From assembly GCA_008632985.1 (NCBI GenBank), contig QPGO01000096.1, positions 62,001 through 126,000 of the forward strand: a stretch of DNA of 64,000 bases. The letters run 5' to 3'. A model generated the notes under the pieces. The model ran no database searches and was not told the DNA's origin. It saw only the letters and a program-made list of their open reading frames with translations. Each line of letters begins with the position of its first letter. Within the stretch, counting starts at the first letter, position 1. The position numbers were made by a program, and so were the translations under genes. This document shows positions 1 to 63,030 of the stretch, one piece after another. Source of the stretch: Psammoneis japonica. Its lineage: Eukaryota.

Positions 1-960
1 AACAATCCACCCGGCATTGGATGCTGGGCTTGGGCATGACTTTCTTGAGGGGAAGGTGTGAGCGATGCTGTGCATCATCACAGCAGCATGTTGGCCAGCC
101 ACCCTGCATGAGGCCAGCAATTGGGCGCCAGGACAGTCCACACCAAACAATGATGCCATCTGGAAGACAATGATGAAAATCACTGTCCAAGAGCAGCTTT
201 GCTCAAGGATGTTGCACAAGAGATGTTGCCAAACTGGATCCAGAGGGTGGCAACCAAGCAATCCTCACTGGCAATGTCAACAAGGAGTGTGTTTGCTCTG
301 AAGAAACCACCAAGGCATTTGAAGGAGCAGTGCAGCCAAAATTTTTTTGTCAGAGAGATGCAGCAAAGACACACTCCTTGCCATGTGAGCTGCAGGATCA
401 GAGCCCATCAATGAAGTGTGGCCACAAGAGGCATTGCCGTCAAACAAGGCAGCTTTCTCCCAATCATCAATGGAGTCAGAGGGTCAGAAAACTGTGCAGC
501 CTGCTGGATTGACATTTCTTGCCAGACTGCTTTTGGCACTCTGCCACCTGAAGTGGAAAGTGACCCAGCCCCGTGCACAAAACTCAACAATCTGAAAGTT
601 GTGGACAGATTGCCTTCAACAAGCTTCACAAGGAACGTGCACTGGAGCACAATCTCTCCACAGCATCAGGGACAAAAAACAAGTGTGACCTGTCCTCCAA
701 CCAAGCCACAGACCAACAAGTGGGAAGCACTCAACTGTTGTCAAGCAGACAGTGTGTGGAAAGCCATTGGCAAATCCAGAAAATTGTGAATGGGTGGAAG
801 GCCATGGTCTCCCAAACTCAAACATGCACCCAAGAGAATTGATCTGCATCTGCCTCTTGCCAGGAAGAAGCCAGCATCAGCTCCAGCAGAGCATGCACAT
901 TTTGTTGGGGTGGTTCTGGTGTGTTTGACTGTGCAAGGGGGGGTGGAGACAGTGACAATT
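1..960 (+). mobile_element. Decayed non-LTR retrotransposon, APE-endonuclease region (copy 1)
   Basis: Degenerate diatom-LINE motifs in order: G.G(R)WAW, AA(Y)(R)P read as AACWP at 83-97, GSEPI..WATRGI, WIDIS(Y)QTAFG..PP, KL...KVVDR and RKL(R)MGGRPWSP. Broken by frameshifts and stops. Confidence 0.7.
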
Positions 961-2749
961 TTTTTGCCACAGATGGATGGCTGGCTGCTGCAATTGTTCA
1001 CAAGCTGAATCATGCTGCAGCACTTCATCATTCTTTCATGTGCACGAGACTTCAAAGGTGCCAACAGAGACAGAGGCTCCCAAAATGACATTTGTGGCAA
1101 GCATCTGTCAGATGGTCTCACCCCATTGGGCATCATGTGCATCAACATGGGATGGCTCAGGAGCATGTCCAAAAGGTTGGAGATTGCCATGACCAGCTCA
1201 GCAATGTCAAATTCATCCATGATGCACATGTCAAACCCAAAATGCCACAAGCCCAATTGTCTTGTGTTGCAGCACAATTTGGAGTGTGCAAGACTGCAGA
1301 GACATCAAAAGAGACAGCCCCCCCAAGATGGCAGCATTTCCTGCAAGCATCTGTTGGATGGTCTCAGGTGAGCATGACATTGCCAAAACCAGCACACCAA
1401 CAACATGGGATGATCCAGTGTGTCCAAACAAAGGTGCAAGATTGCCATGACCAGTGGCGAGGCGGGCAACTCAAAATCCATTTGGTTGTCATGCCATTGT
1501 GCATCGTGTGTTGCGCCATTGTTTGTGATGGCATGTTTTTGTGGAGAGCATGAAAAAGAACCAACCAATGGTGGCATGTGTGCCTTCATGAACCAAGGAC
1601 AAGTGCCAGCCCAAAAACCAAAAACATGGTGAAGGCAGAGAGCACCTGCATTTTAGAAACCTTGATTGTGACAAGAGATGCGCCAAAGTGCTTGCCCCAT
1701 GTGGAGCCACCTGGTGTGAACCTTTGATTGATGAAACATGAGGTGGATGCACAGATGGCTGGTGTCAACAGGGCAACAGTTGGAGGAACAGGCCACTGCC
1801 ACTGACGCAGGAGATGGCTTTGAGGAGGAGAGAGCAGTTTTGGTGGGGTCTGTTTGACAAGCACTGTTGCTGACAGCCAACACATCTCCAGCAAAAGTGT
1901 TTGCATCATCATTCAGTGATGGGACAGAGTGATGGAATTGTGCTGCAGGCATGACTGATCAAGAGGAGCTGTGGGAGAAGCTGTTGCTGCAGAAGGAGAA
2001 AAGTGGGATGAAAGATTGTGACACAAAACACACCCAACACATGTTCAACATGGCCGTCAACTTGATTCATCTTGCAGCCCCTGCTCAATCCTGTCATGTG
2101 CATCAATTGACACACTTGATGCCAACTTAAAAGACAAGTTTGAGAACTCAGATTGGCAGCTCATTTGTTCTTCAGCTGAAGAAGCATTTGGCATCACACA
2201 GCCAGGTGATTCTTCACCTCAGAAAGAGGACAAACAGAGCTTGCATGGTGCCATCAGAGAAACAAACTCATGAAGTTCAAATCTTTTGTTTTGCAGCATG
2301 CATCCATGATGCTGGCCAACATGGTGAGCCTGTTCACTGGCCTCTGCTGGTGTGTGGCAGCACAGTGCTGTTCATGCTCACCTGGGAAGCATGATCCAAG
2401 GAGGACGTGGCTCTTTGACTTGGGCAAGTTCAGAGGAACAATGCCCAGAGCATCCATGCATGCAGCACTTGCCCCGATTGTCTGCCCCCCAATGGCAGTG
2501 CAGCCTGTTGCAATGACATCACTCATGGCAGATGTTGCATGACAGCCTGATTTGCATGGATGATCCATGATGTGTGCAGTGAAAGTTTTGATGCAATGCA
2601 AAATGCATCCAAAGGAGTTGAGATTTGACCAGATTCTGCATTTGCACAGCTCCATTTTTTCTGGAGCAAACTGGCTCACAATTTTCACAACAGCACTTTT
2701 GGAGTGCATCTGCACTTTCATTGTGTCTGTTGGGTGTGCAGGTCAGTTT

Positions 2750-4450
2750 TTTCTAAAGGGCATTGCAGTCAGCCACTTTAGAATTGTGAGACAGCTTGGG
2801 CAAACCCCCATGAAGGCTTTGTTGGCAGCGTTCTTCTGTGAGCACTCCACCATTTTTGCAGAACACTGAGACAGGAGAGTGCTTCCAATGGGAAACTTTT
2901 TGGCAGGGACAGCAACTGTTTTCTTGATGGTCAAATGAACAACATTGTCATGATTGGGATGCAAACTCACAATGGCTGACAGTGCCTTGCATGCCTTGGC
3001 AGCAATGTGTGCTTCCGAGTGTTCTGACATGGCAAACAAAAAGGAAATCAAAGCAGCTTCATCAAATTCTGCAGAGCAAAATGTTCCATTGTCAGCACTT
3101 GCCATCTTGCAATTGGCACCAAACAATGATGGCATGCCTTGAGTGCAATGAAGGTGTTGAGGATGGCACATTGCTTGGCTCAGCTGGCGCAGACTGGTTG
3201 ATGGGATGCCAGTGGGTGCAGAACTTGGGACAGCTGATGGGACTGTTGAAGGCACCACAAATGGTTGTGCAAATGGACTGTTTGAAAGAGCTTTGCTGGG
3301 TGCCAAACTTGGGTGACCCAAAAGGATGGGCTTGGCTCTCAACCTTTTTGAATGAAACAAAGCAAAACAGAGATTTCCATGGGTCTTTGTGACTTGTCTG
3401 ATTTGCAACCCATTGTTTGTTCTCTCACATGTTGTGCCCACTGCAAACAATGGATTCTAGAATGCATCTGTGAAAGCACCCTCCAATGCTCCAGCATGAG
3501 GACCAACATGGGCACTGATGCCTCAAGGTTGCTGACAGAGCAGTTGAAGGAAGAGTGGGAGTGCTTGGCAGAGCATGGAGCTGTGCTTGAGCCATGGCTG
3601 GTGAAGCACTGCACTGCCACTCAGAGTTGCACTGGGTGGCATCACTTGGTGCAGGAATGTGACTTGATGGTTGTGTCACTTGAGCTGGGAGGATTGGAGC
3701 CAGTGTTTGAGTCAGCAGGCAGGTGTGTCATTGGATTTAGCACAGGAGGAGAATTTGGCAATGGACTCAGGTCTTGAGCAGAAGAAGGCAATGAAGGTGA
3801 AGAAACCAGCCAGTCTGATTTAGAACGGGCAAAGGCATTGGGTCTGGTGCAAGATGTGACAATGGCAACAAGTGAGAAACAGCAGGCATCAACATGTGCA
3901 AAACTCTGCTTTCTCATGCTGCAGCAATTTTGAACATGTGCACATCAAGTTTGCAGACAATTGGCAGCAATGGAGCCAAACATGGACTAAAGTCTGGCAG
4001 TGCTGGACTGCCATTTGGAGTTGCACTCAACATGCCACCTTGGCAGCACAAGAGTGTGACTCGGTGGTTGTGCAGTGTGATGGTTGGTGGTTGTGGTGCT
4101 TGGAGCCAGACTTGCACTCAGTGACTGCCAAGGTGTTTGTTTTGGATGCTTCAGTGGCTTGTGGGGATGATGCTGGGGCAGGACCAGGCACAAGATTGGT
4201 GATCACCAGATTTGGCATGGCCAATGTCATCATTGGTGGAGTTGGTTTGGACATGGAATTTTGTGCACAGGATGCACCAGGACAAGGATTTGGCTGCAGA
4301 CTCAGACTCAAGTTGGCGGCAGTTGGTGGGAGGCAATGGAGGAGGAGCAGGTGTCCCAGCCCAATGTGGAGCAAGCAAAGGTGTTGGGCTTGATGTGAGT
4401 CTGAGCATGGGCAGCCCTGTGTGCATTTCAACCTTCAAAAATGACAATGA
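2750..4450 (-). pseudogene. Decayed Pro/Ser-rich host-like ORF (PSxxPS stalk typical of diatom secreted or cell-surface proteins); partial second copy at ~9380-10690
   Basis: Minus-strand translations PSTVPSAVPSSAPTGIPSTS, SSPSLPSSAQDLSPLPNSPP and PGPAPASSPQATEAS are spread over several frames. Confidence 0.4.
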
Positions 4451-4899
4451 ACAAGAAATGCACATCAGCCTTTTTTTCAAAACCTCATTCAAAACCTCAC
4501 TTTTTTATGCTGTCAAACTTGCAATGGGCTGCCACCGCTCAGAAACACATTGGGCATGTCACCAAATGCAGAACTGCAACTCAATGGTCATGTCATTTGA
4601 TTGGCGCATCACTCAGAGCAGGGCTTGCACTCAGTGCATTCTGCCTTGGTGATCTGTTGGATGAGGACACTGCTTGATGGGTTGTCTGCTCACACCATTG
4701 TTGCAAACAATGATTCCAGCTCTCCAAAATCCAAAATTTGTTTGGCAGAGCTAGAGATGAATAAAAAATGGCAAGAACCAGGCAAGCCCTGCTGCAATGT
4801 TTGCACCAATTGTGCAAGAATGGAACTCAATTTATTGTCATTTCCCCATTTTTACAAATTTGAACTGCTCTGCCCCAGACAAGCACCATCCAGCCAGCA

Positions 4900-5800
4900 A
4901 TTTGCCAAGAAACCTCCAAGGAAGTTAAGCCAACCATTCTGGAGAGTGCAAAGATGTCTCAAACAAACAAAATGTTTGGGCCATCCTTGATGCTCTTCCA
5001 GACAAGAAAGCAAGAGCCACAGCCATGAAAAAGCACCCAAATGGGTCCGTGGCTCTCTGTCCATCCTTCCATCATGAACAGCACAGAACCACCATCCAGC
5101 AAATAATTTTGCAATGCCCTTTGCATGCACCATGCTGCAAGCCACCCCACCACAGGAGTGTGATGGATGTGGGAGCAATTTTCCATGCAGCGCATGCACT
5201 GGAATGTAGGAAAGGTGGCTCAGTCATCTCTTGACATGACAAGGTGGTCCAATGCAAGTGGCTGGCTCTGACCTTTTCAACAAATCCACCAAGCCCTCTT
5301 CAGCACATCATGACAAAGCTTCAATCAACCCCAGTCACAACTCAAGGAGCTCAGTGGATGATGCCAAGAAGAGCAGGCAAGCCCAAGTCACTGAGAACCT
5401 CTGCAAGTCCAAAGACGGTGACAGAGGCAATGTTCTGGTGTGCATGGCTGTTTTTAAAGATTGACAGATGCTGCATTGTTTGGTGTTTAAGTTGTGGACA
5501 CAGATGCAAAATTGTGTGGCTTGAAGGATCCAGTCCCGGGAGCCCACAAAAAGGAGAAAGAGTGCAAGCACCTCAAACAAGGCATGCCTTGAACAACACC
5601 ATCTCACTTTGCCCTTTTGTGGCATGCTGCAATGGGCCCATCCAGTCAGATGAGTTGATGCCATCCCATGTGGGAACATGATGGTGCCAGCTCATCACTT
5701 CAAATCCATCAAATCAAATGCAGCCATCAACAAGCAGCTGCTGGATGGCAATGATGAGCATGAAAGCATTGCCAACAAGTCTGCCAAAACAACATTCAAG
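4900..5800 (+). mobile_element. Decayed CRE-like non-LTR retrotransposon 3' end (zinc knuckle plus restriction-like endonuclease), copy 1
   Basis: CDGCG..FS..HALECRKGGSVI.(R)HD (5160-5245), DRGNVLV (~5420), then KK..KHL..C..HF.PFVA across frameshifts. Confidence 0.7.
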
Positions 5801-6049
5801 TCAATGCCACGGTGCACCATGAGGTCTCTTGAACACACAAGCTCAAACATTTAACAGAAGAAGACAAGAAAGGAGGAGCAACTCAAGGAAGTGCACATCT
5901 GTGGAGCAACTCTTCTGTCCTCACCAACATGAAATCTGGTGAAAACTGCGGTGATCTGTGCACCACCAACAAACATGAGACAACATTGCACGGCCTTTCA
6001 AAACATCAATGGATTTGCCAACTTTGAAAAAGACCACATGAAGAAGGAG

Positions 6050-7260
6050 AGAGCATTTTCAGAGGAAGTGTTCAAGAAAAGAGCATCAATGTGATGTGTT
6101 TTGCATGAACAAAACTGGCTGGTTCTGGAGAGCCACACCACTTGAGACCAATGACCACTGGCTCAATTCTGTGGGTTCTGGGAACTGCCACCCAACACCT
6201 CTGCTGCCTGCAACATGCATGACAAGCACTCCAGGAGGCGCGGTGATCATCAGAGGTGTGCACAAATCATCTGTTGTCACTCGCACATGGGCATTTGCAC
6301 ACTCAGCACGCACATGCAATCATGGCTGCTGAGCAAGCTGGCCACCAAGTCATCTCCGAAGGCAACAGTCCATCTGGTCCAGGGTGCTGCTGAATGGACT
6401 TGGACGTGAGATTTCAAGGAAAGGTGTGAGAGCCGCACTGTGCATGGTGATGGCATGTTGACCCTCCTGCATGGGTGCAAGTTGGGCATGCCAGGGCAGT
6501 CCACATGCAATGCTGGTGCCATCTGCAAGATGAGAACAATGGTCATTGTCTGAGAGCAGCTTGGCTTGAGGACCTTGCACCAGATGTTGCAAGCTGGATC
6601 CAGGGTGACAACACAAAGAAATTCTTGCTGGCAATGTCAACAGGTGTGTTCACTCTTAAAAAAACAACACCAAGGCTTTTGAAGAGTGCAAGGAGCAGCA
6701 CAACCAAGAAATCTTTTGTTTGAGAGACATGGCAAAGACACACTCCCTGCCATGTGCTTTCCAGGATCAGAGCCATTCAAACTGTGGGCCACAAGAGGCA
6801 CTGCCTTGTGACAAGGTGGCTTCTTTTCCCCAGCTGTTGATGGAGAGTCAAAGGGTTGGACAACCACATGGCCTGCTGGATTGACATTTTTTTCTGGGCC
6901 ACTTTTGGCAAGTCTGCCACCTGAAATGGAATGTCGCCCAGCCCGATGCACAAAACTCAATTGTGATCCAAAAACCACATGGACAGATTTGACAAGCTTT
7001 GCAAGAGGAGCGCAATTGGAGCAGCCACAATCTCCCCACTGCAGCATGATCAACAAAAAACAAGCAACCCCTGTCCTCCAACCAAGCCACAGACCAATGA
7101 GTGGAGCGCCACCAACTCTCTTTGAGCAGAGGCAGTGATGTGTGGAGAGCCAGCTGCAAATGCAGGAAATTGTGATTGGCTGAAGGCCATGTTCTCATCC
7201 CAAACTCAAACATGCATCCAAGAGAATCAATCTGCTTCTCTCACTGGGAAGTTGGCATCA
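6050..7260 (+). mobile_element. Decayed non-LTR retrotransposon, APE-endonuclease region (copy 2)
   Basis: WTWT(R)FQGK, MA(Y)(R)P read as gca tgt tga ccc at 6453-6464, GSEP...WATRG, CWIDI, LPPE..RPAR.TKL.CDPK; aligns with 1-960. Confidence 0.7.
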
Positions 7261-10200
7261 GCTCCAGAGCACACACATTCTGTTGGGCTGAGAGGCTCTG
7301 GTGTGCATGACTGAACAAGGGGTGGAGGCAGCGATGCCATTTTTTTGCCACAGGTGGTGGATGGCTGGCTGCTGTGATTGCATGCAAGCCAAATCACTCC
7401 ACACTGCATTTTGCACATGCAAGACTCCAGAGGTGCCAACAGAGACAGGCCCCAAAAATGACATTCACACTGCAAGCATCTGTCAAAGGGTTCCACCCTG
7501 TTGGGCATGTGCATCAACATGGGGGATGGCCCAGCATGTCCAAAAGGTGTGAAGATTGCCATGACCAGCTTGGCAATGTGCAAATTGACTGGTTCTTGCC
7601 AGGTGTCCAAATTGGTGTCCATGATGTGCATGTCAAACCCAAAGTGCCATGAGCCAAGTGTTGCATTTGGCATGTGCAAGACTGCAGAGACTTCAACAGA
7701 GACAGCCCCCCAAGATGGCATTTGCTGCAAGCATCCATTGGATGGTCTCACCCCCACTCCCCCCCAAGCAGCCCAACATTGCCAAAACCAGTGTGTTGAT
7801 GCAATCATTGATGCATCAGAAGTGTTTGTTGTTGTTCAGTGATGTGACAGTGAATGGAGCTGTGCTGTGGACATGGCCAATCAAGAGGGGCTGCAGGAAG
7901 TTGTTGCTGCAGAAGGAGAAAAGTGGGACAAAACATGCTCAACATGATCACCAGCTTGGTTTGTCTCACAGCCTCTGCTCTCAACCCTGATGTGTGCATT
8001 GATCAACACGCTCATCAACACCACAACTTCAAAGACAAGTTCAAGAACTCTGATTGGTGAAAACTTTGTTCTTCAGCTGAAAAAGCATTCAGAATCATGA
8101 TGTGGCCAGGTGGCTCTTAACCTCAAAAAGAGAACAAACAGAGCTTGGTGCCATCAAAGAAACAAACTCACAATTTTCAAATCTTTTGTTTCTTTCCAGA
8201 GGGCGTTGCACCAGCCAGCTGCTTCACAATTGAGAGAGCTCAGACAAACCCCCATGGAGGCTTTTGGCAGAACACTTGAAGCTCCCTGACAACAAGCCAA
8301 CATGACAAATCCATGACAATGTGCAGGCAATCAGTGCTGAGCCAGTTCAGCACACATCAATGACAAGCCTTGGGGCATGCTCCAATGATGAATGCCCCAG
8401 TGTGGACCCACCCCCCATCTGAAAGAAAGAGAGTGAAGCAGCAGTGCAAAAACTGAAACGATGGCATCAAAGCACGTGGCAACATTGCAAGCACTGTGAC
8501 TGTCATTGCAGTCCACTGACACACACACAGAATGTCTTGTGAGCAGTCAAAGATTGCTTTCTTGTGATGTTGGTCTTTCCACTTCTGTTGAAAATTTTGC
8601 AAAGAGTGTTTCAAAAATTTGAAGCACATCAGCATCGAAAGTTGACAGAAATCAAGAGTGCCATCAAAAGATGGGGCTCAAGCTTTCACAAGCTTTTGGA
8701 GTGAAGTGTCACTCAAAACATGGAAAAGGGGGTGGAGTTGATGCACCCTCCCTTTTTGCAGCCTCCACCAATGTCTGAGAAAGAGGGTGTCTGCCAGAAG
8801 GAGCCTCCATCAATTCAAAAAAATTTTCCAGTGTCAGAAGCGAGATTCAAAAAGAAGATGAAATGCATTGCTCACACACACACACCAACAATGAAAGAAA
8901 GAAACTCAAATTTGCTCCCACACATGGCTGTTGCCAGCTTTGTCCAGCTGAGCCACTTGAGTTGTGTCACATCAGTGTTGATGCTTCCAGCACCTGGCAT
9001 GATCACCACATCATTGGCAGCAATCACACCTCCTCTCAATTGGAGCCCATGACACACTGCACACAACAATCCAGCAATGTGCCATCTCCTTCAGTGCCAA
9101 TGAGACCAATGGCCAGTGGCTTCCTTGTGACTCCAGTCTTTTTTGTGCTCCACTCATTGAGCAAGGGAAGAGCCTCTGGAGCATGCCATTGTGAAGAAAC
9201 AATTGATGGTTGGCCCCGCAAGGCTTCACCCACCAGGGAACTTCATTGACTGTTGAGGCTCCCTCCACCCCACAACATTGGCACTGATCTTGCCCCACTC
9301 ATGTGTGCTGACAGAGTGCTTCCCATGGCAACCTTGTTGTTGGTGGGGACAGCAGCTGTTTGCTTGGTGGTCAGATGAATGACATTGCCGTGATTGGCTG
9401 TGCAAACTCACAATGGCCAACAGTCAAGCAAAACAGAGCTTTCCTCCTTGGCCCCACAAAAGGGCTGCAAAAACAACATGAGTCTCTGACGGGAACATGG
9501 GTCTTCATGTCTCTGACCTGCAACCATCATTTGTTCTCTCACATGCTGCATGCACCCACTGCAAAAAAAAAATGAACTCTAGAACACAACTGTGAAAGCA
9601 GTCACCCACACTCCAACATGAGGACCAACATTGGCGCCAATGCCTCAAGTGGGTTGTTGCTGATGGAGCAGTTTGGGGAGGAGTGGCAGGGCTTCTTCTT
9701 GACAGAGCATGGAGCTGTGCTTGAGCCATGGCTGACAGGGACTGTGCTGCCACTCAGTGGGAGATGCACTGGGCAGCATCACTCAGCTCAGGAGTGTGAC
9801 TTGCTGGTGGTTGTGTTTTTTGAGTTGGGGCTCCTGGAGCCAGTGTTGGAGAGTTGGGTGTGTCGTTGGTGGAATCAGCACAGGAGGAGAGCTTGGGGCT
9901 GCAGCCAGTGCTGGAGAGTTGGGTGTGTCATTGGTGGATTCAGCACAGGAGGAGAGCTTGGCAATGCTGGGCTCAGGTCTTGAACAGGAGAAGGCAGTCA
10001 AGGCAGAGAAATTGGCCGGTCTGACTCAGAACAGGCCAAAGCATCAGGTCTGGTGCAGAATGCAATGATGGCAACAAGTGAGAAAAACAGGTGTCATCAT
10101 GTGGTGTGCAAAACTTCACTTTCTCATGCTGATGATTTTTGAATGCACACACAAAAAGTTTGCAGACAATTAGAAGCAATGGAGCTGAACACAGACTGGA

Positions 10201-11369
10201 GTCTGGCACTGGACTGCACCACTTGCAATCCTGCTGGATGTGTCACTCAGCACAAGACTGTGGCTCAGCACTGGTTGTGCAGTGTGAGTTGGTGCAGTGC
10301 GCTTGGAGCCAGACTCATGCTTGGTGGCTGCCAAGGTGCTTGCCTCAGATGCTTCAGTGGGGTGTGCAGATCATGATGTTGGGACAGGACGAGGCACAAG
10401 ATTGGTCATCAGATTTGGCATTGCCAGCATCATTCAACATTGACAGAGTGGGTTCCAGCATCAGATTTTGTGCAGGATGCAGGACAAGGACAAGGATTTG
10501 ACTGTGGACTTGGCTCAGACTTGGGTCAGTGGCATTGGGAGGTGATGGAGAAGGAGCAGGTGTGCCAGTCCAATTCAGAGGAGCAGGCAAATGTGCTGGG
10601 CTTGATGCAAGTCTTGGGGTGGGCAGTCCTGTGGGCATTTCAACAACCATTGAAAATGACAAGCAAGAAACACATGACAGCCTCTTCTTCAAAACCTTGC
10701 TTTTTTGTGCTCAGTCAACTCACTGCTGTGGAGCTGCACTTGAGCCACAGCTCGGCACTGGGCTGTTGCTCAGAAGTGCATTGGGCATGTCACTAGATGC
10801 ATCACAGCAACTCAGTGGTCATGTCATTTGAATTGGTGAGTCACTCAGAGCAGGCCTTGCACTTGGTTGCTGCCAAGGCATTGGTGTTGGAGTGCCAGAC
10901 TCTAAGCTGGGAGCAGCAGAGGTGGCACTCAGTGTTCTGCTTTTGTGGTCAGCCCAACCAGGGCTGCTTGATGGGTTGTCCTGCTCATGCCATTGTCAAC
11001 AGAACAATGGCAGCACCAGTTCTCTGAAAATTTAAAATTTGTTTGGCAAAGCTTGAGACAAATGAAAAATGGAAAGAGCCAGGTGACAGAACATGACGAC
11101 ACTGCCCACAAACCCTGCTGTGATGTTTGTGACAATTGCACAATGACAATGGAGAGCTCTGCTGATCTTGCAGCCATCACAATTTAAAAAGCAAGATTTG
11201 GGTGTTGACAATGTTGTCATTGACTCAACTTGTTGTCATTTCCCCATTTTGACAAATCTGAGCTGCTCTGCCCCAGACAACTGTGAATTGAGCACCCTCA
11301 TGAAAACTCATGCAATTGACTTACTGTGCAGTGCCGTGTGCTGCAGTTTGAGTTGGTGGTTCACCGAGA

Positions 11370-12330
11370 AACCTCCAAGGAAGTCAAGTCAACCATTCTG
11401 GAGTGCAAGAATGTCACAAACAAACAAAAACTTTGTGCCATCCTTCATGCTCTGCAGGACGAGAAAGCCAGAGCCACATGAAGCACGCAAATGGGCACAT
11501 GGATGTGTGTCCATCCTTCCATTGTGAGTGGCACAGAGCCATCCAGCCAAGGATTCCATGATGCCCCTCATGTGCACTGCGCTGCAACACCTCCCAACCT
11601 GCCACATGAGTGTGATGAATGTGGGTGCAAATTTTCCATGCAGCATGCACTGGAATGTGAGAAAGGTGGCCCAACCATCTGTTGACATGAAGAGGTCAGA
11701 GACAAGCCGCCTGGAGAGTGCAAAACAACCTTTTTGGCAAATCCACCAAGCCCTTCTCAGCATGTGACAAACCTTTGGTCAACCTTGGTCACAACTGAAA
11801 GAGCTCAACAGATGATGCCAAAAAGCACAAGCAAGTCAGGGTCTCCAAGAACCTCCACAAGTCAAAAGAATGTGACAGAGGCAATGTTCTGGTGCGCGGC
11901 TGACACGGGCGCGCAAAATCACATCACCCAAGAGATCCAGAGAAAGTCCTCTGGAAGCCCACAAAAAGAAGAAAAAGTGCAAGCATCTCAAGGCATGCCT
12001 TGGACAATGCCACCACTTCACCCTTTTGTGGCATCCTGCAACAGACCAGTTGGAGAAGAGGCAAAGGCTGTTTTGCAGATGGCAACAGCCGCCAAGTTCT
12101 TGGAGAAATGGGGCAAAACAAGCCTTGTCTTCTGAGGTGCGTTGCTTCATCAGCACTCAAATGAGTGCTGCTGTCATGCTCACTGCTCACCTCTGCCTCC
12201 AAGGATTTCAAATTTTCAATGCTGTCCCATGTGTTGGGAAGGTGCCAGCTTGTCACTTCAAAACCATCAAATGTCATCAAATGCCCCCTCCCCATCACCA
12301 AGCAACTGCTGGACGTTGATGACATGAGTG
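11370..12330 (+). mobile_element. Decayed CRE-like non-LTR retrotransposon 3' end (zinc knuckle plus RLE), copy 2
   Basis: LPHECDECGCKFSMQHALECEKGG..I.(R)HEEVRD, DRGNVLVRG, PFVASCN.PVGEEAKAVLQ...KFLEKWGK and FIS.QMSAAV..TAHLCLQG, matching the RLE C-terminus (R.RMS.A.VR..HLCLRGSR). Confidence 0.8.
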
Positions 12331-28377: not shown

Positions 28378-28379
28378 TG

Positions 28380-48350: not shown

Positions 48351-48694
48351 TTTTTGGACTCCTTCGACTAAAGGGTGTGCTCTCGAATAATCTGACATCT
48401 ATGCAGTAAATTCATTCTACTCCTACTCTACTACTTTGCATTTCTGTAGTGCTTCATTGGAACTTCTGCAATGGCCTCGCCAGACTTGCCTTCTAGAGTA
48501 AACATTTACAGAGTGACATCTGGCTACAAAGCATGAGGATGCGGGTCACCACAACAACAAACTCCAGCCCCAGCAATAAAAGGGGAAAAAGTAAACCACA
48601 AATGCCACACTAATGATACATATTTCAAATCCCGTTCGCATGAATAATATAATGCTCTGCCGTCACACCGTCGCAGCACGCTGTCCTTTTCATG

Positions 48695-50242: not shown

Positions 50243-52577
50243 CTAACTTGGTGTTCGAATGCTGCCCTTGGCCATTCCAAGTAGTTTTGCAAATATGCTG
50301 GCACCATTATCACGTAAGCCCGAGTGCTGAAATTCGTTTGTGACAAAAACTTTACATTTTTCAAGCGGGCCACCGCGTGTCGCTACTTTCATGGAGGCAT
50401 CAAAATCAACATATAAATCTTCAAGGTAAACTGACGCTGCTGCCTTGGATCTCGTCGCGAGAACTTGTTGCATGTGCTCTCCGTCATAAAGCGGCGTCCA
50501 ATCATCTTTTGCGGCCAAGGCCTGCGCTAACGACTTCATGCCTACTCCACTCACTTCGGAATAGTCACCATCCGCCATCCAAGGAAACACCATCTCCCCA
50601 AAGAAAAGAGTCGGAAGCGAGTCATCATTACTCTGGCTGGTCACTGTATAGTCAAACTCAGATGAAGGTTTGTTTACTCGATTTTCATACGCTCGATGAG
50701 CCGCCCAATTGGTAGGACAGCAATCGGAACCATCACCATAGATGCTTTCGTGCAGCAAGAAGTAAATGGGGTGATCATCAAAGCTCTGTTCGGAATCGAT
50801 TCGTTTCAGAAAAGCCTTTGAAAATTCTACGCTCTCCTCATCAAGAAAGGCCGACGCAAAAAGGGCATGAAGTGATGCAAACGCAGACGGAGATCCTCCT
50901 AAGCCTAGCCCCAGCTGCAAAAATCGTCGAGCAGTGAGTTTGCCCCCCGAAGGTAGGGTAGCGGGTTGGTTTGACAGTACGTTCACAATCTTTTTGACTA
51001 CGGCGACATCGCCTGGATACATGTCATAATATTTCAAGCTACGCTCCTTGACTCTTTCCCATAAAAGGTTGTATACATCGTATACGGGTGTCAACATTGG
51101 AGCAACTACGCACGTCGGCAAGACACAGAGTACACGAGAGACATCGACGGTGAGAAATCGTAGCAACATAGAAAGTGCACCAGTCTCATCGCCGTGACTT
51201 TACTTACTCCCCCCTGTCAACAGGCATATCCTAGGTGGATAGTCAACTTGCGACAAGTACGTCATCATGCAAAAGCCTCCAAAGGATTGTCCTAATGCCG
51301 CTCCGTAGGGGCGAGGTACTTCGTCCTCCTACAACGATAATGCCCATCCACGCATCGGAGTGAGAGGCATTACTATACTAGAGGGAACCACAGCAAGAAC
51401 TAAATCAAACTCACCTCCTTTTCTACGGGAAGTAAAAGAGCATCCTTGATCTCTTCTGCGTCTTGAACAATATTGTCGGCACGCAAACTCGCCATGTAGT
51501 TGGTAGCATCTCGCAACGCATCTCGTGCTTTTTCAATCTTGTCAGAATACGATTCATCAAAGTCGTCCAAGGTCATTACCTCATCCACCTCATCATCCAT
51601 GATAAAGAGATCAGGAAACCTCTTTTGTAAAGTCTGTTTCGTCACTGGAGTGGATCTGCGAAACAGAGTTAGTGAAAGATGAGGATGAGAACTAAAGGAA
51701 AAGGCACCAACGCTCCAACCGCCAATACGAACCTGCCAGTACCACGTTGATCCATGAGTACAATGCGAGAATAGTGGTCAAGAGCCGCAGCCGCCCAAGA
51801 ACTGTCTTTCGACAAGCCTAAAGAAACACAAGGTGTAGGACTACCAAAGCCAGGTCCGCCCTGAAGGTACAATATCATGCCACTTGCATCTTTTATCGAA
51901 GCATGATTTACGTACGATTCCGCACGTTTCGCAGGCGTCATTGTAACAAGAGATTCCCACCACAGCTCGTCTTCCTCCTTGGCGATTTCAATCAACGAGA
52001 AAAAGACATCGATTCTCTGAGAAGTCTCGCCGGTTCGGCTAAGAGGCAGAGAAATGACATGTTCTGTAACAACTGCACGCTTATTGTTTCCAATCGCATG
52101 GTAAGCGGGTGGAGAGATCATGCGATGATTTCGCTGCTGTTGCTTCATGGCTTGCTGCAATCGTCGTCGAGCAGCCGATGCCCCTCCCGATGTCGATTGC
52201 TGCTCAGACTTGGAGGATTCGTCTTTTTTTCTTGCAGTATTATGCAACCAACCCGTACGAGGAGTTTCTTCTGACGTATCTTCTTGTTTCCCTGCTTCTC
52301 CTCCCTGCTTATTGGAAGATTCAGACGCCCAAAATGTTGATGAGTCACTGGGTTGGTTGTGGTTCCACCCGGTCGCTGGAATACCAGGCGAAGATGTTGT
52401 TTCTTCACTATTTTCTGAAGAAGCTGAGAACAAAGCTACCGGTGTTTTATGGCTTCTACACTTTGCGTTCTTGACAAGTGACCTAGAACGGAGACAGTGT
52501 TCCAAGCATAAGCTGTGAGGCGTAACCGCGTCAAGATTGGTGCTATTAACATGAACCAACGGACCATCGTCGACCAT
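50243..52577 (-). CDS. Proline iminopeptidase (S33 alpha/beta hydrolase) with a long N-terminal extension. Introns 51656-51732, 51329-51414 and 51106-51207
   Basis: YLQGGPGFGSP, MDQRGTGRS (across an intron), nucleophile GQSFGGFC, LTGGIAP, DLYVD and TNEFQHSGLR. The start is uncertain (52577, or 52567 with a frameshift). Confidence 0.85.
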
Positions 52578-52779
52578 CCATCATCCTGGTGCGATTGTGC
52601 GAAACTGTTTGTGCCGTGTTGGAGGGTTGGAGCGAGTGTTGGAGTGTGGCGGATCGCATCGCGGATCGTCCGACTGCCGACGCGCGCTGCTGAGCAACAG
52701 TAGACCACCGGCATCATCATCATCTGCAATGGAATCTCCCGCGGAAGTGCATGACCTTGTTGTACATAGACTGCCGGTG

Positions 52780-55700
52780 TGGTGCACAAACATGTGATGA
52801 TCTTCGTGTTTGAAGAGTGTGAAGAAACAAATTGTTAGTGCATGCTTGATGCTTGTTGGCATGTTCGCACCAGCAGTCGCACCGCCCCTGCAGGGATGGT
52901 GAGGGAGTCCAGCGAGAAAGTTTGCACCCCCCAGGAACGCAAGGGAAATGAGCTTGCATGCCAGCAGAACCACAGCAAAAAAGTTTGCAGCCCCCCAGGA
53001 ACCCCCAGTTTGCATTCCCCCACGAATGCAGTCGCGGAGGAATGAATCAACCACCGCGAAAAAGTTTGCACCCCGAGTGGAGCCCCCCGCGAAAGAAGTT
53101 TGCAGCAGACCCCCAGGAGCGCAGCCCCGAGAAGTTTTTGTCACATTGACATGGTCAGGAGCCACAATGGAAAACTTTGCAACCCCCCAGGAACCCCGTG
53201 CAGAACTTTGCATCCCACGAGGAACCCCAATGAAAAAGATTGCAACCTTGCCCCCCCCCCAGGAATGCAGCCACGAGAAGTTTCTGTTCAGCATCAGAAC
53301 TTTGCATCCCCCAGAACCCCCACGAAAAAGTTGGTGTCCCACAAATGGCACCACAGGAACTGAGTGTTGCATGTGGGATTCAACAGATGTGGCACAAGTG
53401 CACACACACATGCATGCTCAAAGTTTGTGCAAAATGAACAACCAAACAATTTGGATCTGAAAACCTTGTGCAAAAACAAAAACGACCCCAACCAAATTTT
53501 TGACATGAAAAAATGACACGGCCATGGCAAAAAAAACTGCTCATGTTGCTCTCACACTTTGACACGCTGCAAAACTGAGGCATGCATCAGCGCATCTCAT
53601 TGACCAGATGTTGTGTTGCAACAATGCATGCGGTCGTCAGTGGCAACCTTGGCACTCAAATCGAAGGCATGCTCTTGACACCAAAAATGATGCCCCGCAG
53701 AAAACCACACAAACTCCACACAAAAATGAAGTCGCCAATCAACAACCCTGTCACACACGGTGACTGGCAACACTGCACACACCACATCTGCAACCAACCA
53801 ACACATCACGAGGTTTGTCAGACAATGAAGGATGCGACCACACCAACAAAAGCGCCATGCCAAACAAACGGTGATGACAGTGAGTGGGTCATTGTTGGTG
53901 CAGTGCATTTTTGCAATTCCAGCTGCTGCGGATTGAAGTTTCATGCTGTGGGGGCAAAAGCAAAGACACACAGGCAGACAAAAAAGCACGACCATTGGTC
54001 ATGCATCTGTGACATGATGAACACACCAAATGGCAAAAAGGTGTTGACTGAGGTCCCGGAGCTGGGAGTGTGCAGCACAAGTGTCAAAAATTTTGACCTT
54101 GACAAGAACATCAATGTGACAAAATCAAACTTTTTGGGTGCATGTGACATTGACAACTGAGTGATTCATTGAGGCAATTTCAAATCATTCAAACCATTGT
54201 GTTGTGATGAAATCATTGATTTCAAAACAAAGTCATTGCCAAAAAAGATGTGCTGACAGGAGCCAACTGACAGTCAGCTCACATTTTGGCCAAAAACATG
54301 AATTGTTGCTCCCTCACAAGACACAAAAATGCAAACTCAAGTCACACCCACTGTCTGGCACTGTGTGATGACTGCATCACAATGGCTGTGGCTGTGAAAA
54401 CCCTGTCCTCACTCACAGTGCCTGCCCATGCAAGGAAGCACAGCACCAGAAAAGTGCTGATGCATGCTCTCACTGTCAAGACAGCAGGACCACGCAATTC
54501 TCAACCACTTTGAGAACGGATCACGAGCATCAAAAGTCCCTTTCGCACAGCAAATTGAGACCCTTGGGCAGTGGCTTGACACACTTGCTCTCATCAGAGC
54601 AAAATTTGCTCCTGCGGCTGACAAGCTGAGAAGTGGCTCCTCCACAAAAACTGTGTGTTGACTGAGGCAAAAGCAGTCATCCTGCAGAAAATGCTGCAAG
54701 AGAGCAGTGCCAGAAAATGATGGTCACACATGCCCCTTGGGGGGGCAACTCACACAGAATCAGCACACCAAGACTTTGCAGAGCTGGCAGACCACCTGGC
54801 AGTTTGGGAGGACAAGTGTGAGTGCATGTGCACAGGGTTTGCACCTGAGGCACAAAAATGCCAAGGCTGGCAAGATGCTGAAGAAAGGTGGTGCAACAGC
54901 TTCTCTCTTGCTCTGCAGCAATGGCATCAGCTGACAATCATTGCCTCAAAGAAGCTCCAGGGCAAAGTGTGCATCATGCCAATCAGACATCTTTGCACCA
55001 ACCAAAAGATGACAAATTTCTGTGAACATTTTCACTTGGCACAAAACTCCTCTTGCATTTCCCAAGAAGTGATGCCCACATCTCACTGCCAAAGCTCCCA
55101 AGAAGTGATGCCCACATTGGACATTGTTCATGAGCATGTGTCACCCCACAATCATGCTTTCAATCTGTCTGACAGACTGGCAACAAGGGTTGCAAGAATG
55201 TTGGACGGAGGGCAATCATTGGGGGGCGTGGTCATTGAGCTGAAACAATTGGCGCGACTGTGAAGACAACAGTTGGCTGAGGAATCAATGCATTGCAAAT
55301 GTGTGAGGGCCAGCACACTGTGCACTGCTCTGGCACAAATGCATGTTCACATGATCAAGTGCCCACATTGGTGATTTGTTTTCTCAGCTCTTCTTTGTTG
55401 TTGCTGTTTTGCGGCATGCACTGATGCTGGTGCATGTCTTCTGTCCCATGCTGCTGGGGCAAGATGAATTTTGCACTCACAAAAAGGAGTCCAAACCCAC
55501 CTGCATTTTCTGACGAGAAGAGCTGTGCAAGCTTCAACAGTCTGAGTTTGCAGACAAGCTTCAGCTTTTTGATGCTCCTGCCATGGCTGGCTTCGTTGGG
55601 GAAAGAGTGCCAAAGGAAACTTGGCACTCTGGGGACACTTGGAGATGTCCAGGGATGGCAGGGGGCGGGCATCCAGGGACAGTCAGACCTGGCAGTGGGA

Positions 55701-55850
55701 CATTTTGGTGTCTCCAGGAAGATGTGGCTTGTCAGGGAGAGAGGGCAACCCCCCACCACCGCCAGAGTGGAAGCAGCAAGAGATGGTGACATTCTTCATC
55801 TGCTGCACAATGTCTTGTTCATTGTTGCTCCCACATCAAGTGCGATGTCT
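52780..55850. other. Hypermutated repeat domain D (unidentified element)
   Basis: TpA essentially absent and CpG reduced. Begins with a repeat array; internal duplication cccaagaagtgatgcccaca at ~55061 and ~55097. Confidence 0.85.
52915..53335 (+). repeat. Degenerate minisatellite (aagtttgca.cccccaggaaccccc units), possibly subterminal repeats of a DNA transposon
   Basis: About 8-10 imperfect copies of tttgca(c/g/a)ccccc.aggaa between 52918 and 53325. Confidence 0.65.
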
Positions 55851-58547: not shown

Positions 58548-60479
58548 CTACAAGCCTTTTCGAATCATGGCCAGAGCCATGTCTTTTTACGCCTTGATGT
58601 CAATGCTGCCACGAGCATCCTTGTCATCACTACTTGATGACGAGGACGATTCTGAATCGCTCTCTTCGTCGCTGCGGCTGCTGCTACTACTAGAATATAC
58701 CTCGTCGTCACTATGTCCACCAAGTCACCATCATGCCAGTATCCTGCTGCTGCTCATCCAATGCACCCTTTGCTTTGATTCGTTCCCCTTTGTGCATTTA
58801 CCGTACTCGCTTCTTTTCCTGTTCACGATCCTGCTTCATGCCATCCTCCAACCGCTGACGCACCTTGTCGACATAGGATTGATTTGCATCCGCCAACGAG
58901 TCTCGTTCCTCATGCATCGTGTCGGTATTTGTCAATGAAAGCTTGGTAGGATCCTGTTCCTGCCTTCGCCATCAAAGATGATTCGTTTATTCTTGGCATC
59001 TAAGCCTCCTTCGACCTTGATTCTCTTTGCCTTTCGAGATATGGTAACTTCATGAATGCCACCCTCGGTTGCGTCTACATCCTCCTGGCTCCACTCGTGC
59101 CGTTGCTTTACAACCAACAAGTCGTCCTCTTCTTTCTCCTCTACGTTTGTACTTTCTAGCGAACGCTTCTTGTTGTCGAGTTCAGCAATCTTTTTCGTCA
59201 ACTTTTCCGCCTTGATTTGCTCCTTAAGCTTTTGTAGCTTGTGATTGACGTTTTTTGGATTTGCGCACCTGCGTTCGATCCTTGATTATTTGTAGAAAGC
59301 GAAGGTTGGGAGTGAAGGGCAGTCCCAGAGAAGTGGCGAACTCGTCCACGGCCAAGTAATCCAACTTGAAGATGTCCTTGTTTGGCATTAAATGAATCGA
59401 TCGTAGATAGGATTGAAACGCCTTTTTAGCGAGCGATTGTATTTTTGGATTTGACGCGACACGCGAGGCGGCACGTTGGGTAACAAGAACCGTCTTGGTT
59501 GGGTTCATGGCCATCTTTTTCAACGGCACGCGAGACTTGCTCAGCAATTCCAACATACCGGCTTCTTCCTGTGGCGTGACACATATTAACGACTTTCCAC
59601 TACGATTGTACCGTGCCGTTCATCCCACACGATGGATATACATATCTTGGTCTTCGGGCGCACCCACTTGAACGACCCAATCGACACTTGCAAAGTCCAA
59701 CCCACGCGCCACAACGTCTGTCGCAAACAAGACGGCGTTGGGTCGATGGACAAAGTCAAAATAAATAGAGGTTCGTTTGGTTTGTACCAGCTTGCCGTGA
59801 AATGCCATGACGGGAATTCCGGGTAGGTTGAAGCGCACAAGAGAGCTGCCACGCAAAGCGTACTTGGGAACATGACGCCGTCCAAAACTCGTATATGCAA
59901 GTTCGAAACGTCAAAGTTTGGTGTCTGTTCCAAGTGCTGCAACAAACGTCCCGGTGTAGCCACTAGGATATTGGTGGATCCGACATGCTGTTGTTCGACA
60001 TGATACTCTTTTTTGCCGCCCACTACTAGTCCAGCCGACAATGAACGATGTTGTCACACCTTTTTCAAAACTTGAAAGATATTCATATGAACCGCAAACT
60101 CACGAGTCGGACTTAAAACAAGAGCTCCGGGCCCTTCGCATGGAGTGTATCTCGAGCAAACGGCACCAGAAACGCAAGATTTTTTCCAGAGCCCGTTCGT
60201 GCCGCACCCAAAATGTCTCTTCCACATAGAGCATGAGGGATACAAGCGTTTTGTATTTCAGTCATGGTGACAGAGTTAGCTCCATCCAATCCACGCAACG
60301 TTGCTTCTGACAAGGGCAAAGCTCGAAACGAAACCTGCTGACCAAGCGTAGGAGTATCCTCGACCAGGAGCTTCTGCAGCAACCCGCTGTTAAAGACTCT
60401 CAATCTCCTGCTCTCATTTTACAACATGTCTCTCATCGCCCTGCTTCTTTTGGGGATAGCGGCGCTTGTACTTGGCCAT
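58548..60479 (-). pseudogene. DBP4: DEAD-box RNA helicase DBP4/DDX10 pseudogene
   Basis: Q motif and GAARTGSGK, LVLSPTRE, ATPGRLLQHLEQT, ATDVVARGLDF, YIHRVG and AKKAFQSYLRS are spread across several frames. The DEAD motif is truncated (RVLD then jumps to the RecA2 region), and there is an in-frame TAA at 58587-58589. Confidence 0.85.
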
Positions 60480-60639
60480 GGCGTTTGTTTCTTCGACAGA
60501 ATAAAAGAAGATAGCGATCGCGAGAAAAAAAGTGAGAACACTTGAAGAAAAACGAAAAAATGAGTGGGTTCTGCGAACAGCTGAGCACAAATTGCTCAGC
60601 ACCTGTTTGACTCCATCGACAAAATGTCTACAGCACAAC

Positions 60640-63030
60640 TTCGTCGTTGAATCTGCTCATCTTTGATGGACTAGACCTTTCATGCTGGAACCAAAAACTT
60701 CATTGTTTCCTTTCTTAGCACTTTACTGGAGGCAGTCAATCTGGTGAAGCAAGATGATGACATGCTGGATGTGGGTGGAGATGGTGAAAACTCACTCTCT
60801 TGCGGATGTCTGCACAGCGCAACATCATGAATGAAAAATCAAAAGATGAACTTTCAGCTTGAACTTGTGTCATTCCAGATCACCCCTCTGGCTCCTGGCA
60901 TCATGGAAAGGCCCACACAATCAGAGGGAGAAAGATGGCCAAAGATTGTCTTTCTGACATGGCAAAATTGCAGACGTGTTGATTGTTGCATGGCTCATCA
61001 TCCAACACTTTCACAGCTGTTAAAATTCAACGGATGCATTCACAACAGTTGTTTTGCAAGAGACTGATGAGACACATCCAAGAGCTGAGTCCACCTGAAA
61101 CAAGACTGTTGTGTGGGACTTGTTTCTCTGTGCAACTGTGCAACACTTTTTTTGTTCTTGTCTTGGAGTTGGTTTCACATGGAACACTTCTTGTTGCAAG
61201 CATTTGTGACAGAAAGAGCCAGCAAAGGTGCAGTGCAAGATGTTCCAAATGCATCTGGAACAAGCAGTCACAGCTTTCACTGAGCAGTCATTTGACCCAC
61301 CAAACTGTCTCTCTGTGGCCCCAATTGTCTTGAATTGGTCGGGCCAGCTGACAGAACCAAAAAACACAAGCACACACAAACACACAGATCTGTGTCATTT
61401 TGATGCAGTCACTTCAGCTGTCCACCTGGGCTGCCAATCTCAATCTTTGTCAGAACTCAAAAGGACAAATCAAATCACATGTTTTTTGTCCCATGCCATG
61501 TGCCACCATGACTTTCAGCACCCACAACACCTCAATTGCTGTCACCTTGTGGCACTTGGAGAACCCTTGTGTGTTTGCAGAGCAGCAGCAATGTGCGCTG
61601 TGACCACAAGGGTGTTGTCTTGGCATTGTGGAGCACTTGTGGTCAAGAACTTGTGCTCAGTTTTGAACGCAGCAAAAGCACACAGCAGATTTTTCCAAAC
61701 ACCAGCAAAGGTGCCCCCCTTGTCATGAGAAAAGGGAAAAACAAACTTTGCAGCTGAGTCTGCTGCCACACACTTGTTTTGGCCATGCACAGCTCCATCA
61801 TGGCATTGTCATCAACTCCACGTTGAGTGGCGTAATGAGCATTTGACAGAAGTTGCTGCAAAAGGAACCCCAAATTGCCATTGTGTCATGCCCATTCACT
61901 CTTGTTGTTGAGATTCCTTCTTGTTTGTGTCATGAGACATGAGCTCATGTGCTCATGACCCAACAGTGCATTGTTGACACAGATTTGTTTTTTTGGAGTG
62001 ACCCATTTGCCGCTGCGTGGCATTGACTGTGTTTTGATGCACCTTCCTCTTTTTGCATGACTGACAGACCTCTCAGACAATGCACACATGCACGCGCACA
62101 TGGCATGTGTGGAGTCCAACCCGTTGGCAATTGTGGCGGTGTGAGCAGGTGGAAGAGCTGCCAAACAGCCAAAGCAACCTGATCTTGGCATGCCAGACAA
62201 CCAGATGTTTGCTTGGCATTTGCACACAACAAGAAAGAGCTGTCCAAGGGTTGCTTGTGCTGGGGGAATGGCAGCAAAACTGACTCCCAGATGTGCTCAC
62301 CACCCATGCAACAAGACAGATGAGAAAATGTTCATGATCCAATGCATTGTGTGCAAAAGTGCACCAAAAACTCATGGGACTTGGCAAAGAAAGGCGCACA
62401 CACATGACTTCCTTCGATTCACACCAAACAAGGCCCCACACATGACAGCTCACTTTGTGAGAAGAGACACTTGCTGGGCTGGATTGTCAAGCCCTGGATG
62501 GCCCTTCTGCAGGGCACAGCAAGGTGTTGTCTCTCCTGGACAAAAGAAAAAAGGAGGTTGGTTGAGGTGCTGATTTTGCTCTGTGCTTTTGATGCTCATT
62601 TGTGGCTCACTTGTCTGGCAGTTGTTTTGCACTGTTGCTCAGTTGGTGTTTTTTGTCTCTGTGGTGTGTTCCCAGCTGTTTTGCACCTGTGCAGTTTCTG
62701 ATCATCTTTGTTTGCTGCCAGTGCTGTTTCACATTGTGAGCTTGCTGTCATCTTGTTCTTGATCTGTGGCCCTGATGTTTCAACCTGATTGTGCCAGCCA
62801 AGATGCTCCAACTCGTCCTCAAGAGATGTGGCTTCTGCAGCCCATGACTGTGGACATTCTTCTCGCACACAAGCTCCTCTGGCACACCCCTGATCCCCCC
62901 CTCAAGACCTGGTTCTTGCTCACATTCAAGCAAAGAAAGATCAGGATACTCTGGCTCTTCTTTGACATCCTTCAGTGCCTCCAATGTCCCCTCAAGACCC
63001 CGCTTGAAGATGTCGAAAAAATTCATCAGC
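60640..63030. other. Hypermutated repeat domain E
   Basis: TpA and CpG depleted; protein-like remnant at the right edge with apparent Tyr to Cys/His changes. Confidence 0.85.

Follow-up and report, generated by a model that had tools for sequence, protein, structure and literature searches.

We analysed a 64-kb window, positions 62,001 to 126,000 of contig QPGO01000096.1 in the Psammoneis japonica assembly GCA_008632985.1, and find five discrete blocks in which nearly all TpA and most CpG dinucleotides have given way to TpG and CpA. The blocks are best explained as silent, gene-free diatom DNA, in which duplications have decayed, a single heavy-metal ATPase gene has died and further repeats have no assigned family. 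Their composition was probably produced by two processes acting on such silent DNA, namely decay of methylated CpG and a TpA-specific A:T to G:C hypermutation for which adenine deamination is the most likely chemistry. The closest known case is the TpA hypermutation of integrated viral DNA in Bigelowiella natans. By their ratios of observed to expected counts (o/e), 1-kb sub-windows sort into two compositional states; all block statistics derive from the window itself.

Composition of the depleted blocks

Segmentation on TA+CG density delimits five blocks totalling 23,888 bp. Within them 49 TA (o/e 0.03) and 168 CG (0.12) survive, and TG and CA stand at 1.90 and 1.83, compared with o/e values of 0.55 for TA, 0.99 for CG, 1.18 for TG and 1.13 for CA in the remaining 40,112 bp. 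For the window as a whole the figures are 1506 TA (0.36), 2530 CG (0.67), TG 1.45 and CA 1.40. Judged by TpA alone block 4 is longer, since the longest TA-free run extends for 3034 bp from position 52837, and the total rises to ~25 kb. With this extent for block 4 and the density of normal regions as the standard, the blocks hold 49 TA where ~971 are expected and 200 CG where ~1532 are expected; chance is therefore excluded. The first 600 nt contain no TA and five CG (at 12, 63, 126, 438 and 572), and the first TA of the window occurs at 1654.

Composition switches within 200–400 bp at the block edges. Moreover, nine non-ORF spacer segments within the gene islands (7404 bp; ORF, open reading frame) have a TA o/e of 0.70 and a CG o/e of 1.04, so the contrast is one of blocks against the rest rather than of coding against non-coding DNA. 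Taken together, the sharp edges and normal spacers rule out a genome-wide drift and place the process inside the blocks alone. GC content is 0.47–0.49 inside the blocks and 0.49 outside, the o/e of ApA is 1.17 inside and 1.14 outside, and ApT is barely altered (0.83 against 0.93). A first-pass annotation of this DNA had described five blocks with near-complete TpA loss and strong CpG loss amid normal gene islands, and had counted 0 TpA and 5 CpG in the first 600 nt. The counts are exact, the blocks stand, with TpG and CpA at ~1.9, and normality extends from the islands to their spacers; only the suggested extent of about 26 kb exceeds what we measure.

Evidence for mutation in place

Four independent lines (mass balance, diverged copies, a normal homolog and the loss of arginine at the protein level) establish that the change is mutational and took place in situ. 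Relative to normal-region density, 2254 CG and TA have been lost from the blocks and 2344 TG and CA gained. The loss of CpG amounts to only ~1330 and thus cannot by itself supply this gain. Duplicated copies within blocks 1 and 2 (4624 aligned columns) differ by 127 CA↔TG double differences, most of them in the block 1 copy pair, against 0–13 in each of the other seven double-transition classes. In control paralogs of normal composition (2572 columns) there are 7 such differences, with 0–12 in the other classes. The excess between depleted copies therefore indicates that ancestral CG and TA were resolved independently, on either strand, after duplication.

The direction of change can be read from a short non-coding element in block 1 that has a homolog of normal composition (Table 1). 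The 17 TA of the normal homolog correspond in the depleted copy to TG (7), CA (7) or another dinucleotide (3), and its 14 CG to TG (6), CA (6), CG (1) or another (1). By comparison, the depleted copy keeps TG at 8 of the homolog's 11 and CA at 16 of its 22. A purine/pyrimidine-coded self-comparison of the window revealed no further depleted/normal pair above noise. The normal homolog lies in a non-coding spacer of normal composition (43727–45500) that directly abuts block 3, so an undepleted relative of a block 1 piece sits beside a depleted block. The same spacer carries a 151-bp tandem repeat (44956–45249) and has very high summed contig depth.

The fourth line comes from the ATPase relic in block 1. 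At the columns where the family has a conserved arginine, three of four residues of the relic are now His or Cys, as CGY has become CAY or TGY. These columns were read directly from the codon table; an automated codon-reversion count was not used, since it over-calls. The first-pass annotation had proposed a second process, turning TpA into TpG and CpA, in addition to CpG decay, and this proposal is borne out by the mass balance, the double differences between copies, the polarised alignment and the context dependence described below.

Context, strand and rate

The surviving TA are far from a random sample of those expected. None of ~302 remain in RTAY, 15 of ~508 in YTAY and RTAR, and 34 of ~161 in YTAR, the enrichment of YTAR among survivors being highly significant (Fisher p = 1.8e-15). 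Counts of the CA/TG classes are nearly even, so that TA arising anew would be spread almost evenly, and it is removal that accounts for the skew. In a two-strand survival model, k*t for the A of T-A-N takes the values 3.1 (T), 2.8 (C), 1.2 (G) and 0.4 (A), and the context that survives best is TTAA (15 of ~36). The direction of the outcome follows the same rule: YTGY and RCAR have gained 747, compared with 393 for YCAY and RTGR, a contrast to which the weaker context effect at CpG also contributes. Where just one strand offers T-A-Y, the product from that strand predominates.

Both strands have been struck alike. Block 1 contains 1439 TG and 1530 CA, and a runs test on copy-pair states gives 65 runs against 64.0 expected, with all five blocks likewise at expectation. 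Strand balance and the absence of runs point to independent single-site events on both strands, and the lack of strand-coherent clustering leads us to reject processive editing of a single strand. A test of the single transitions for TpC to TpT showed no excess. The TpA process is strictly dinucleotide-specific, given the unchanged ApA and the absence of a TpC excess. With 127 discordant sites, ~254 would have been converted in both copies since their split (2 × 127), and background transitions amount to ~0.034 per site per lineage. As a rough estimate, site-specific rates would be at least ~30 times those of background transitions.

CpG loss obeys a milder context rule, with k*t for N-C-G of 1.45 (T), 1.08 (A), 1.02 (C) and 0.59 (G), and CpG survives best in GCGC (32 of ~79). 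Expressed as the surviving fractions of TA and CG, the blocks differ markedly: 0.057 and 0.098 in block 1, 0.071 and 0.093 in block 2, 0.053 and 0.20 in block 3, 0 and 0.27 in block 4, and 0.025 and 0.15 in block 5. Moreover, TpA depletion overshoots CpG depletion at 33.8–34.2 kb and at 52.8–54.0 kb. The two losses are thus partly uncoupled, and we read them as two processes that share one target, with the TpA arm the faster. The single dual system of the first-pass annotation is not established, in that TpA and CpG survival vary independently from block to block. In the left part of block 4 (52889–53330), a degenerate short tandem repeat, no TpA is left, and about half of the CpG has been kept.

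Block content, neighbouring genes and read support

Block 1 consists of two diverged tandem copies of ~6.3 kb each (~25–5810 and 6395–12380) that are 70–75% identical. Internal duplications are also found in block 2 (30581–31383 and 31752–32512) and, as a tandem repeat, in block 3 (46519–46822 and 46691–46987). Six-frame read-through translations of blocks 1–4, with stops as X, gave no credible Pfam family; the sole match, to DUF4798, scored 21.3 bits, below the cut-off of 27, and was rejected. The ATPase relic surfaced only in a full HMMER search, having been missed by the six-frame Pfam scan. Searched with phmmer against 1.84 billion representative sequences, one block 1 ORF yielded 65 matches at E≤1e-3 (best 6.6e-16), and a domain scan of the seven top matches found E1-E2_ATPase in all seven and HMA in five. 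The named relatives are Cd/Zn-type ATPases of the diatoms Seminavis, Fragilariopsis, Pseudo-nitzschia, Nitzschia, Fistulifera, Thalassiosira and Chaetoceros. By tblastn the copy A relic is 44–49% identical across its 91 aa, and it scores 66.8 bits (E 2.9e-22) against a profile built from 34 homologs. The copy B piece matches weakly, at profile positions 667–696 (5.9 bits, E 7e-4) and by tblastn against P0126 (54.5% identity over 33 aa, E 6e-4). Against the family consensus, the copy A relic has changed at 21 of the 51 conserved columns. A dead host-type gene thus lies within block 1, itself a tandem duplication in decay. The description of the blocks as transposable elements and of the process as repeat-targeted, made in the first-pass annotation, is not established, blocks 1–4 having no credible Pfam domain and block 1 a host-type ATPase relic.

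Table 1. Coordinates of the depleted blocks and associated features. Positions are those of the window; blocks 1, 2, 3 and 5 have their segmentation limits, and block 4 is given by TpA extent.
Feature	Position	Strand	Details
Block 1	1–12563		TA 28 of ~487 expected, CG 75 of ~769; left edge lies beyond the window
Block 2	28572–33656		TA 14 of ~197 expected, CG 29 of ~311; TpA low to ~34200
Block 3	45615–48025		TA 5 of ~93 expected, CG 30 of ~148
Block 4	52837–55780		wholly TA-free, TA 0 of ~112 expected, CG 47 of ~176; CpG partly lost at 52.9–54.0 kb; 53986–55721 by segmentation
Block 5	60796–62888		TA 2 of ~81 expected, CG 19 of ~128; X1 contigs on 60686–61639 and 61903–64000
Depleted copy of short non-coding element	8429–8732	+	homolog of 44308–44627; purine/pyrimidine-coded identity 85–91%
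Normal-composition homolog, polarises changes	44308–44627	+	transition-tolerant alignment, 331 columns
Heavy-metal (Cd/Zn/Cu type, P1B) ATPase relic	2851–3123	-	block 1 copy A, 91 aa
Second ATPase relic piece (P-domain), weak match	8730–8822	-	block 1 copy B
X1 contig matches	47118–52912, 46245–46628, 60686–61207, 61180–61639, 61903–64000		0–3 differences

The predicted proteins mark the window as eukaryotic and diatom-like. Among the ORF products are an RTEL1-type helicase, a HAD hydrolase, a myosin, kinases and ankyrin proteins, and the proteins closest to a myosin fragment are those of diatoms (Ditylum brightwellii, 75% identity; Thalassiosira pseudonana, 59%). Three adjacent ORFs on the minus strand at 21148–25824 (two with a myosin head, one with IQ and ankyrin regions) look like one class-V-like myosin gene interrupted by introns or frame changes. 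On the plus strand, 34507–42306 is a single ORF of 2599 aa with long internal repeats (~36–41 kb; units of 55–66% nucleotide identity) and a C-terminal ankyrin region, and this repeat-bearing ORF keeps normal TpA and CpG. Pieces of an intron-split DEAD-box, SPB4-like helicase gene lie at 59224–60403 (minus strand); they carry many run contigs, for which conservation of the gene is the probable reason. Scanning the window for tRNAs and Rfam families gave no matches.

Two public sequencing runs, here X1 and X2, bear on the assembly. Logan contigs of X1 contain 0.94 of the 31-mers sampled from 26001–36000, and X1 contigs with a word depth of ~61 differ from the window by 0–3 letters where they lie on portions of block 3, block 5 and the adjoining genes (Table 1); one of them, of 5797 bases on 47118–52912, differs by one letter. 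A word depth of ~61 needs accurate reads, and an artefact of base-calling at modified bases is therefore very unlikely. X1 is possibly the assembly's own sample, so that this agreement tests read accuracy rather than an independent isolate. It does answer the concern, raised in the first-pass annotation, that raw reads might fail to support the assembly. Summed contig depth is high in blocks 3 and 4, partly owing to very short high-copy words, and was not used as copy number. At 46000, 46540, 47252, 53774, 54445 and 54517, other X1 contigs of single-copy depth show CG/TA↔TG/CA changes relative to the window, and such changes make up six of the nine single-copy-depth differences within blocks among the 40 of 495 letter differences displayed. 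This is a weak hint of allelic variation, or of recent or ongoing change, of the block type. No RNA run was listed as containing the stretch. Run X2 behaves as RNA, its contigs skipping intron-like gaps; it gives no cover in the blocks, and missing cover of this kind is not usable as evidence on expression. X2 contigs jump over 48831–48917 and 51106–51732 as spliced RNA would, and these two intervals are probably introns of two unannotated minus-strand genes without a Pfam match.

Discussion

In our preferred account the sequences came first, and both of their DNA strands would then have been struck by two transition processes, each of them site-specific. The change of CpG to TpG or CpA would most likely result from 5-methylcytosine deamination in silent chromatin with heavy CpG methylation, and that of TpA to TpG or CpA from enzymatic deamination of adenine in DNA, with T-A-pyrimidine preferred. 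TpG and CpA would be a dead end for both processes, and the blocks would thus drift towards a TA-free, CG-poor state of unchanged GC. We infer that the blocks are methylated, that an adenine deaminase exists and that some signal, either silent chromatin or duplication, selects the blocks.

In B. natans, integrated DNA of nucleocytoplasmic large DNA viruses (NCLDVs) and of virophages undergoes TpA to TpG/CpA hypermutation (Mettrop et al., bioRxiv 10.64898/2026.01.13.699255, 2026 preprint). According to the main text of that preprint, 231 of 302 nuclear mutations in mutation-accumulation lines fell in two silent viral insertions, 230 of these 231 were A to G or T to C, all stated to be on TpA, and 124 clusters poor in TpA and rich in CpA and TpG were described, with an ADAT2-like DNA adenine deaminase as the proposed cause (bioRxiv 10.64898/2026.01.13.699255). 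The likeness to our blocks is close as far as that account goes: the target is TpA, the strand decides whether TpG or CpA results, only discrete silent regions are affected and the remainder of the genome (here, of the window) is normal, and the long-term footprint consists of TpA-poor, CpA- and TpG-rich clusters. The host there is a rhizarian and here a diatom. TpA has been erased only in part there, with a Rho TpA of 0.45 for the NCLDV region, and here nearly totally (0.03). The targets described there are viral and single-copy, unlike the repeats without an assigned family and the duplicated host-type gene relic found here. The first-pass annotation had suggested that the signature might be new as a diatom defence pathway. 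In a literature search that left most subscription journals outside, we indeed found neither TpA-directed hypermutation nor a combined erosion of TpA and CpG reported for diatoms; TpA to TpG/CpA hypermutation as such is already on record in the B. natans preprint, whose main text makes no mention of diatoms.

The CpG arm resembles ordinary decay by 5-methylcytosine deamination, which turns CpG into TpG or CpA on both strands of silent DNA with modest context dependence. These features recur here, in the 12 of 14 CG that became TG or CA, in the three of four arginines that became His or Cys and in a CpG o/e of 0.12. Unlike in our blocks, TpA is untouched by such decay. In diatoms, transposons of T. 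rotula are reported to be 84% CpG-methylated and methylation in C. cryptica to lie mainly at CpG (PMC11842555, PMC5124317, in the portions drawn on here). Repeat-induced point mutation (RIP) of fungi is comparable in that hypermutation by transitions inactivates DNA that is silent or present in duplicate and can strike host genes among the duplicates, block 1 here likewise being a tandem duplication with a dead gene in it. Fungal RIP converts CpA to TpA and makes DNA AT-rich. In contrast, TpA is destroyed here (0.03), CpA and TpG are the end product (CpA 1.83) and GC stays at 0.48. Fungal RIP is therefore excluded by its chemistry, as the first-pass annotation had already reasoned from the removal of TpA, and the unchanged GC argues the same way.

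Editing of a retroelement intermediate by ADAR or APOBEC enzymes can likewise be rejected, the changes being strand-balanced, with runs at expectation, and the copies having been struck independently after duplication. Among agents of A to G change, ADAR prefers a 5′ U or T and Pol eta prefers WA, and Pol eta also makes A to T and A to C changes. The blocks display none of the strand-coherent clusters, ApA loss or transversions at A that ADAR hyper-editing or the AID–Pol-eta pathway would leave. The first-pass annotation had listed as a candidate an error-prone, Pol-eta-like patch repair of T:G mismatches, which would remove TpA near deaminated CpG by WA>WG changes. Its appeal is that the two dinucleotides disappear from the same blocks. 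Yet ApA keeps its level (1.17 inside, 1.14 outside), TG and CA account for almost all of the lost TA and leave little room for transversions, and block 4 is without any TA yet keeps 27% of its CpG; we regard this somatic-hypermutation signature as highly improbable.

Of the remaining rivals, the strongest is a single bifunctional DNA deaminase of the ADAT2/TadA type, converting C to U at CpG and A to I at TpA with no need for cytosine methylation. Both depletions do occupy the same blocks, and ADAT2/TadA-type enzymes act on A and C alike: amphioxus BjADAT2 deaminates both in DNA, and its preferred context for C, 5′-TCG-3′, is also the fastest CpG context here (PMC10354150, as far as that report is drawn on). 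One enzyme should nevertheless yield a fixed ratio of TA to CG survival, where we find 0 to 0.27 in block 4 and 0.057 to 0.098 in block 1, with footprints that differ at two edges. The TpA arm occurs alone in B. natans, as its preprint's main text has it, the TC preference of TadA-derived editors (PMC10354150, same portions) has no counterpart in a TpC to TpT excess, and CpG methylation, known in diatom repeats, is enough for the CpG arm. On balance we consider a single enzyme unlikely. Somewhat less likely again is a TpA arm that works through a modified base, either symmetric N6-methyladenine (6mA) at TpA deaminating to hypoxanthine or oxidised thymine at TpA (5-hydroxymethyl- or 5-formyluracil; 5hmU/5fU), which mispairs with G. 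It would accord with the loss of only the self-complementary YpR steps, CpG and TpA, as expected of marks copied on palindromes, and with outcomes that are strand-symmetric and independent from site to site. To our knowledge, though, symmetric 6mA in eukaryotes sits at ApT rather than TpA, and ApT is barely altered here (0.83 against 0.93).

A genome-wide neutral spectrum of CpG and TpA to TpG/CpA, with no targeting at all, would make the blocks simply old, unconstrained DNA and the genes DNA held by selection. The blocks are indeed old, judging from the ~13% background divergence of their copies and the heavily decayed ATPase relic, and TpA is mildly low everywhere (o/e 0.55). Set against this are the gene-island spacers (TA 0.70, CG 1.04), the edges of 200–400 bp and the non-coding homolog that retains its TA and CG 1 kb from block 3, and we judge drift without targeting very improbable. 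We give scarcely any weight to the possibility that foreign DNA brought this composition with it or that it is an artefact of sequencing or assembly. Foreign DNA does often stand out as compositional islands with sharp limits, and modified bases can mislead some base-callers, but the CA↔TG differences between copies, the polarised alignment and the diatom-type ATPase relic speak for decay in place, and the accurate-read contigs agree with the window to within 0–3 differences.

Several points weigh against the account of methylated-CpG decay plus TpA-directed adenine deamination. The case is one 64-kb window, direct polarisation covers 331 columns, and the expected densities derive from mostly coding DNA. 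The rate excess is calculated rather than measured, in contrast to B. natans, where the rate was measured. Of the 21 mismatches in the ATPase relic, 16 are ordinary changes, and these, with the background divergence of ~13% between copies, indicate that the blocks are old. The main text of the B. natans preprint reports neither a CpG arm nor a flanking-base preference such as the T-A-Y rule seen here, so that sameness of mechanism can only be inferred. Moreover, in the available portions of PMC10354150, the only ADAT2 shown to deaminate DNA adenine, BjADAT2, prefers GAA rather than TA, a point that counts equally against the one-enzyme alternative. Lastly, the dual signature was found in 0 of 874 1-kb windows across 479 kb of diatom-like metagenome contigs, a weak objection given that these contigs are gene-rich. 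Likewise, blastn and tblastx of the blocks against the 59 diatom-like metagenome loci, again on gene-rich contigs, returned no match. All 11 low-TpA metagenome windows lie in a single high-GC contig, L053, without the dual signature. In its interval 10001–19000 the TpA o/e is 0.09–0.20 with normal CpG and 55–68% GC, and it encodes a distant myosin (42% identity); L053 belongs to a different, GC-rich organism.

How the blocks are selected can be modelled in two ways, both of which fit. A duplication-triggered, RIP-like process is consistent with the presence of duplications in blocks 1–3 and with undepleted repeats that are short or diverged. Targeting of silent chromatin is consistent with the single-copy word depth found in portions of block 3 and block 5 and with the untouched state of a short related element that lies 1 kb beyond block 3. 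The Bigelowiella target, described in its preprint as single-copy, also favours silent chromatin (bioRxiv 10.64898/2026.01.13.699255).

We put forward tentatively, as a possibility that we hold less likely than the account of this window itself, that diatoms have a block-directed defence based on the editing of adenine in DNA. Such a system would be specific for T-A-pyrimidine, would erase TpA at no less than double the rate of methylated-CpG decay and, together with that decay, would drive silent or duplicated DNA, host genes included, to a TA- and CG-free state without altering GC. Given that a rhizarian has the same TpA signature, it is perhaps old and shared across stramenopile, alveolate and rhizarian lineages. 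If true, TpA-directed hypermutation would be known from a second eukaryotic lineage, and for the first time from a diatom, and the blocks would display its end state, the complete loss of TpA. To the main text of the Bigelowiella preprint this case would add a flanking-base rule (T-A-Y fast, TTAA slow), a co-occurring yet partly independent CpG decay, and a duplicated host-type gene among the sequences struck. With GC preserved, such blocks escape the usual scans for RIP or isochores, and the process could be widespread and overlooked. The erasure of TpA eliminates all TAA and TAG stops, Tyr codons and TATA-like motifs, and thus bears on gene prediction and on estimates of repeat age in diatom genomes. 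If the account holds, diatoms would possess a natural DNA adenine deaminase of defined context, of relevance both to genome defence and to base editing.

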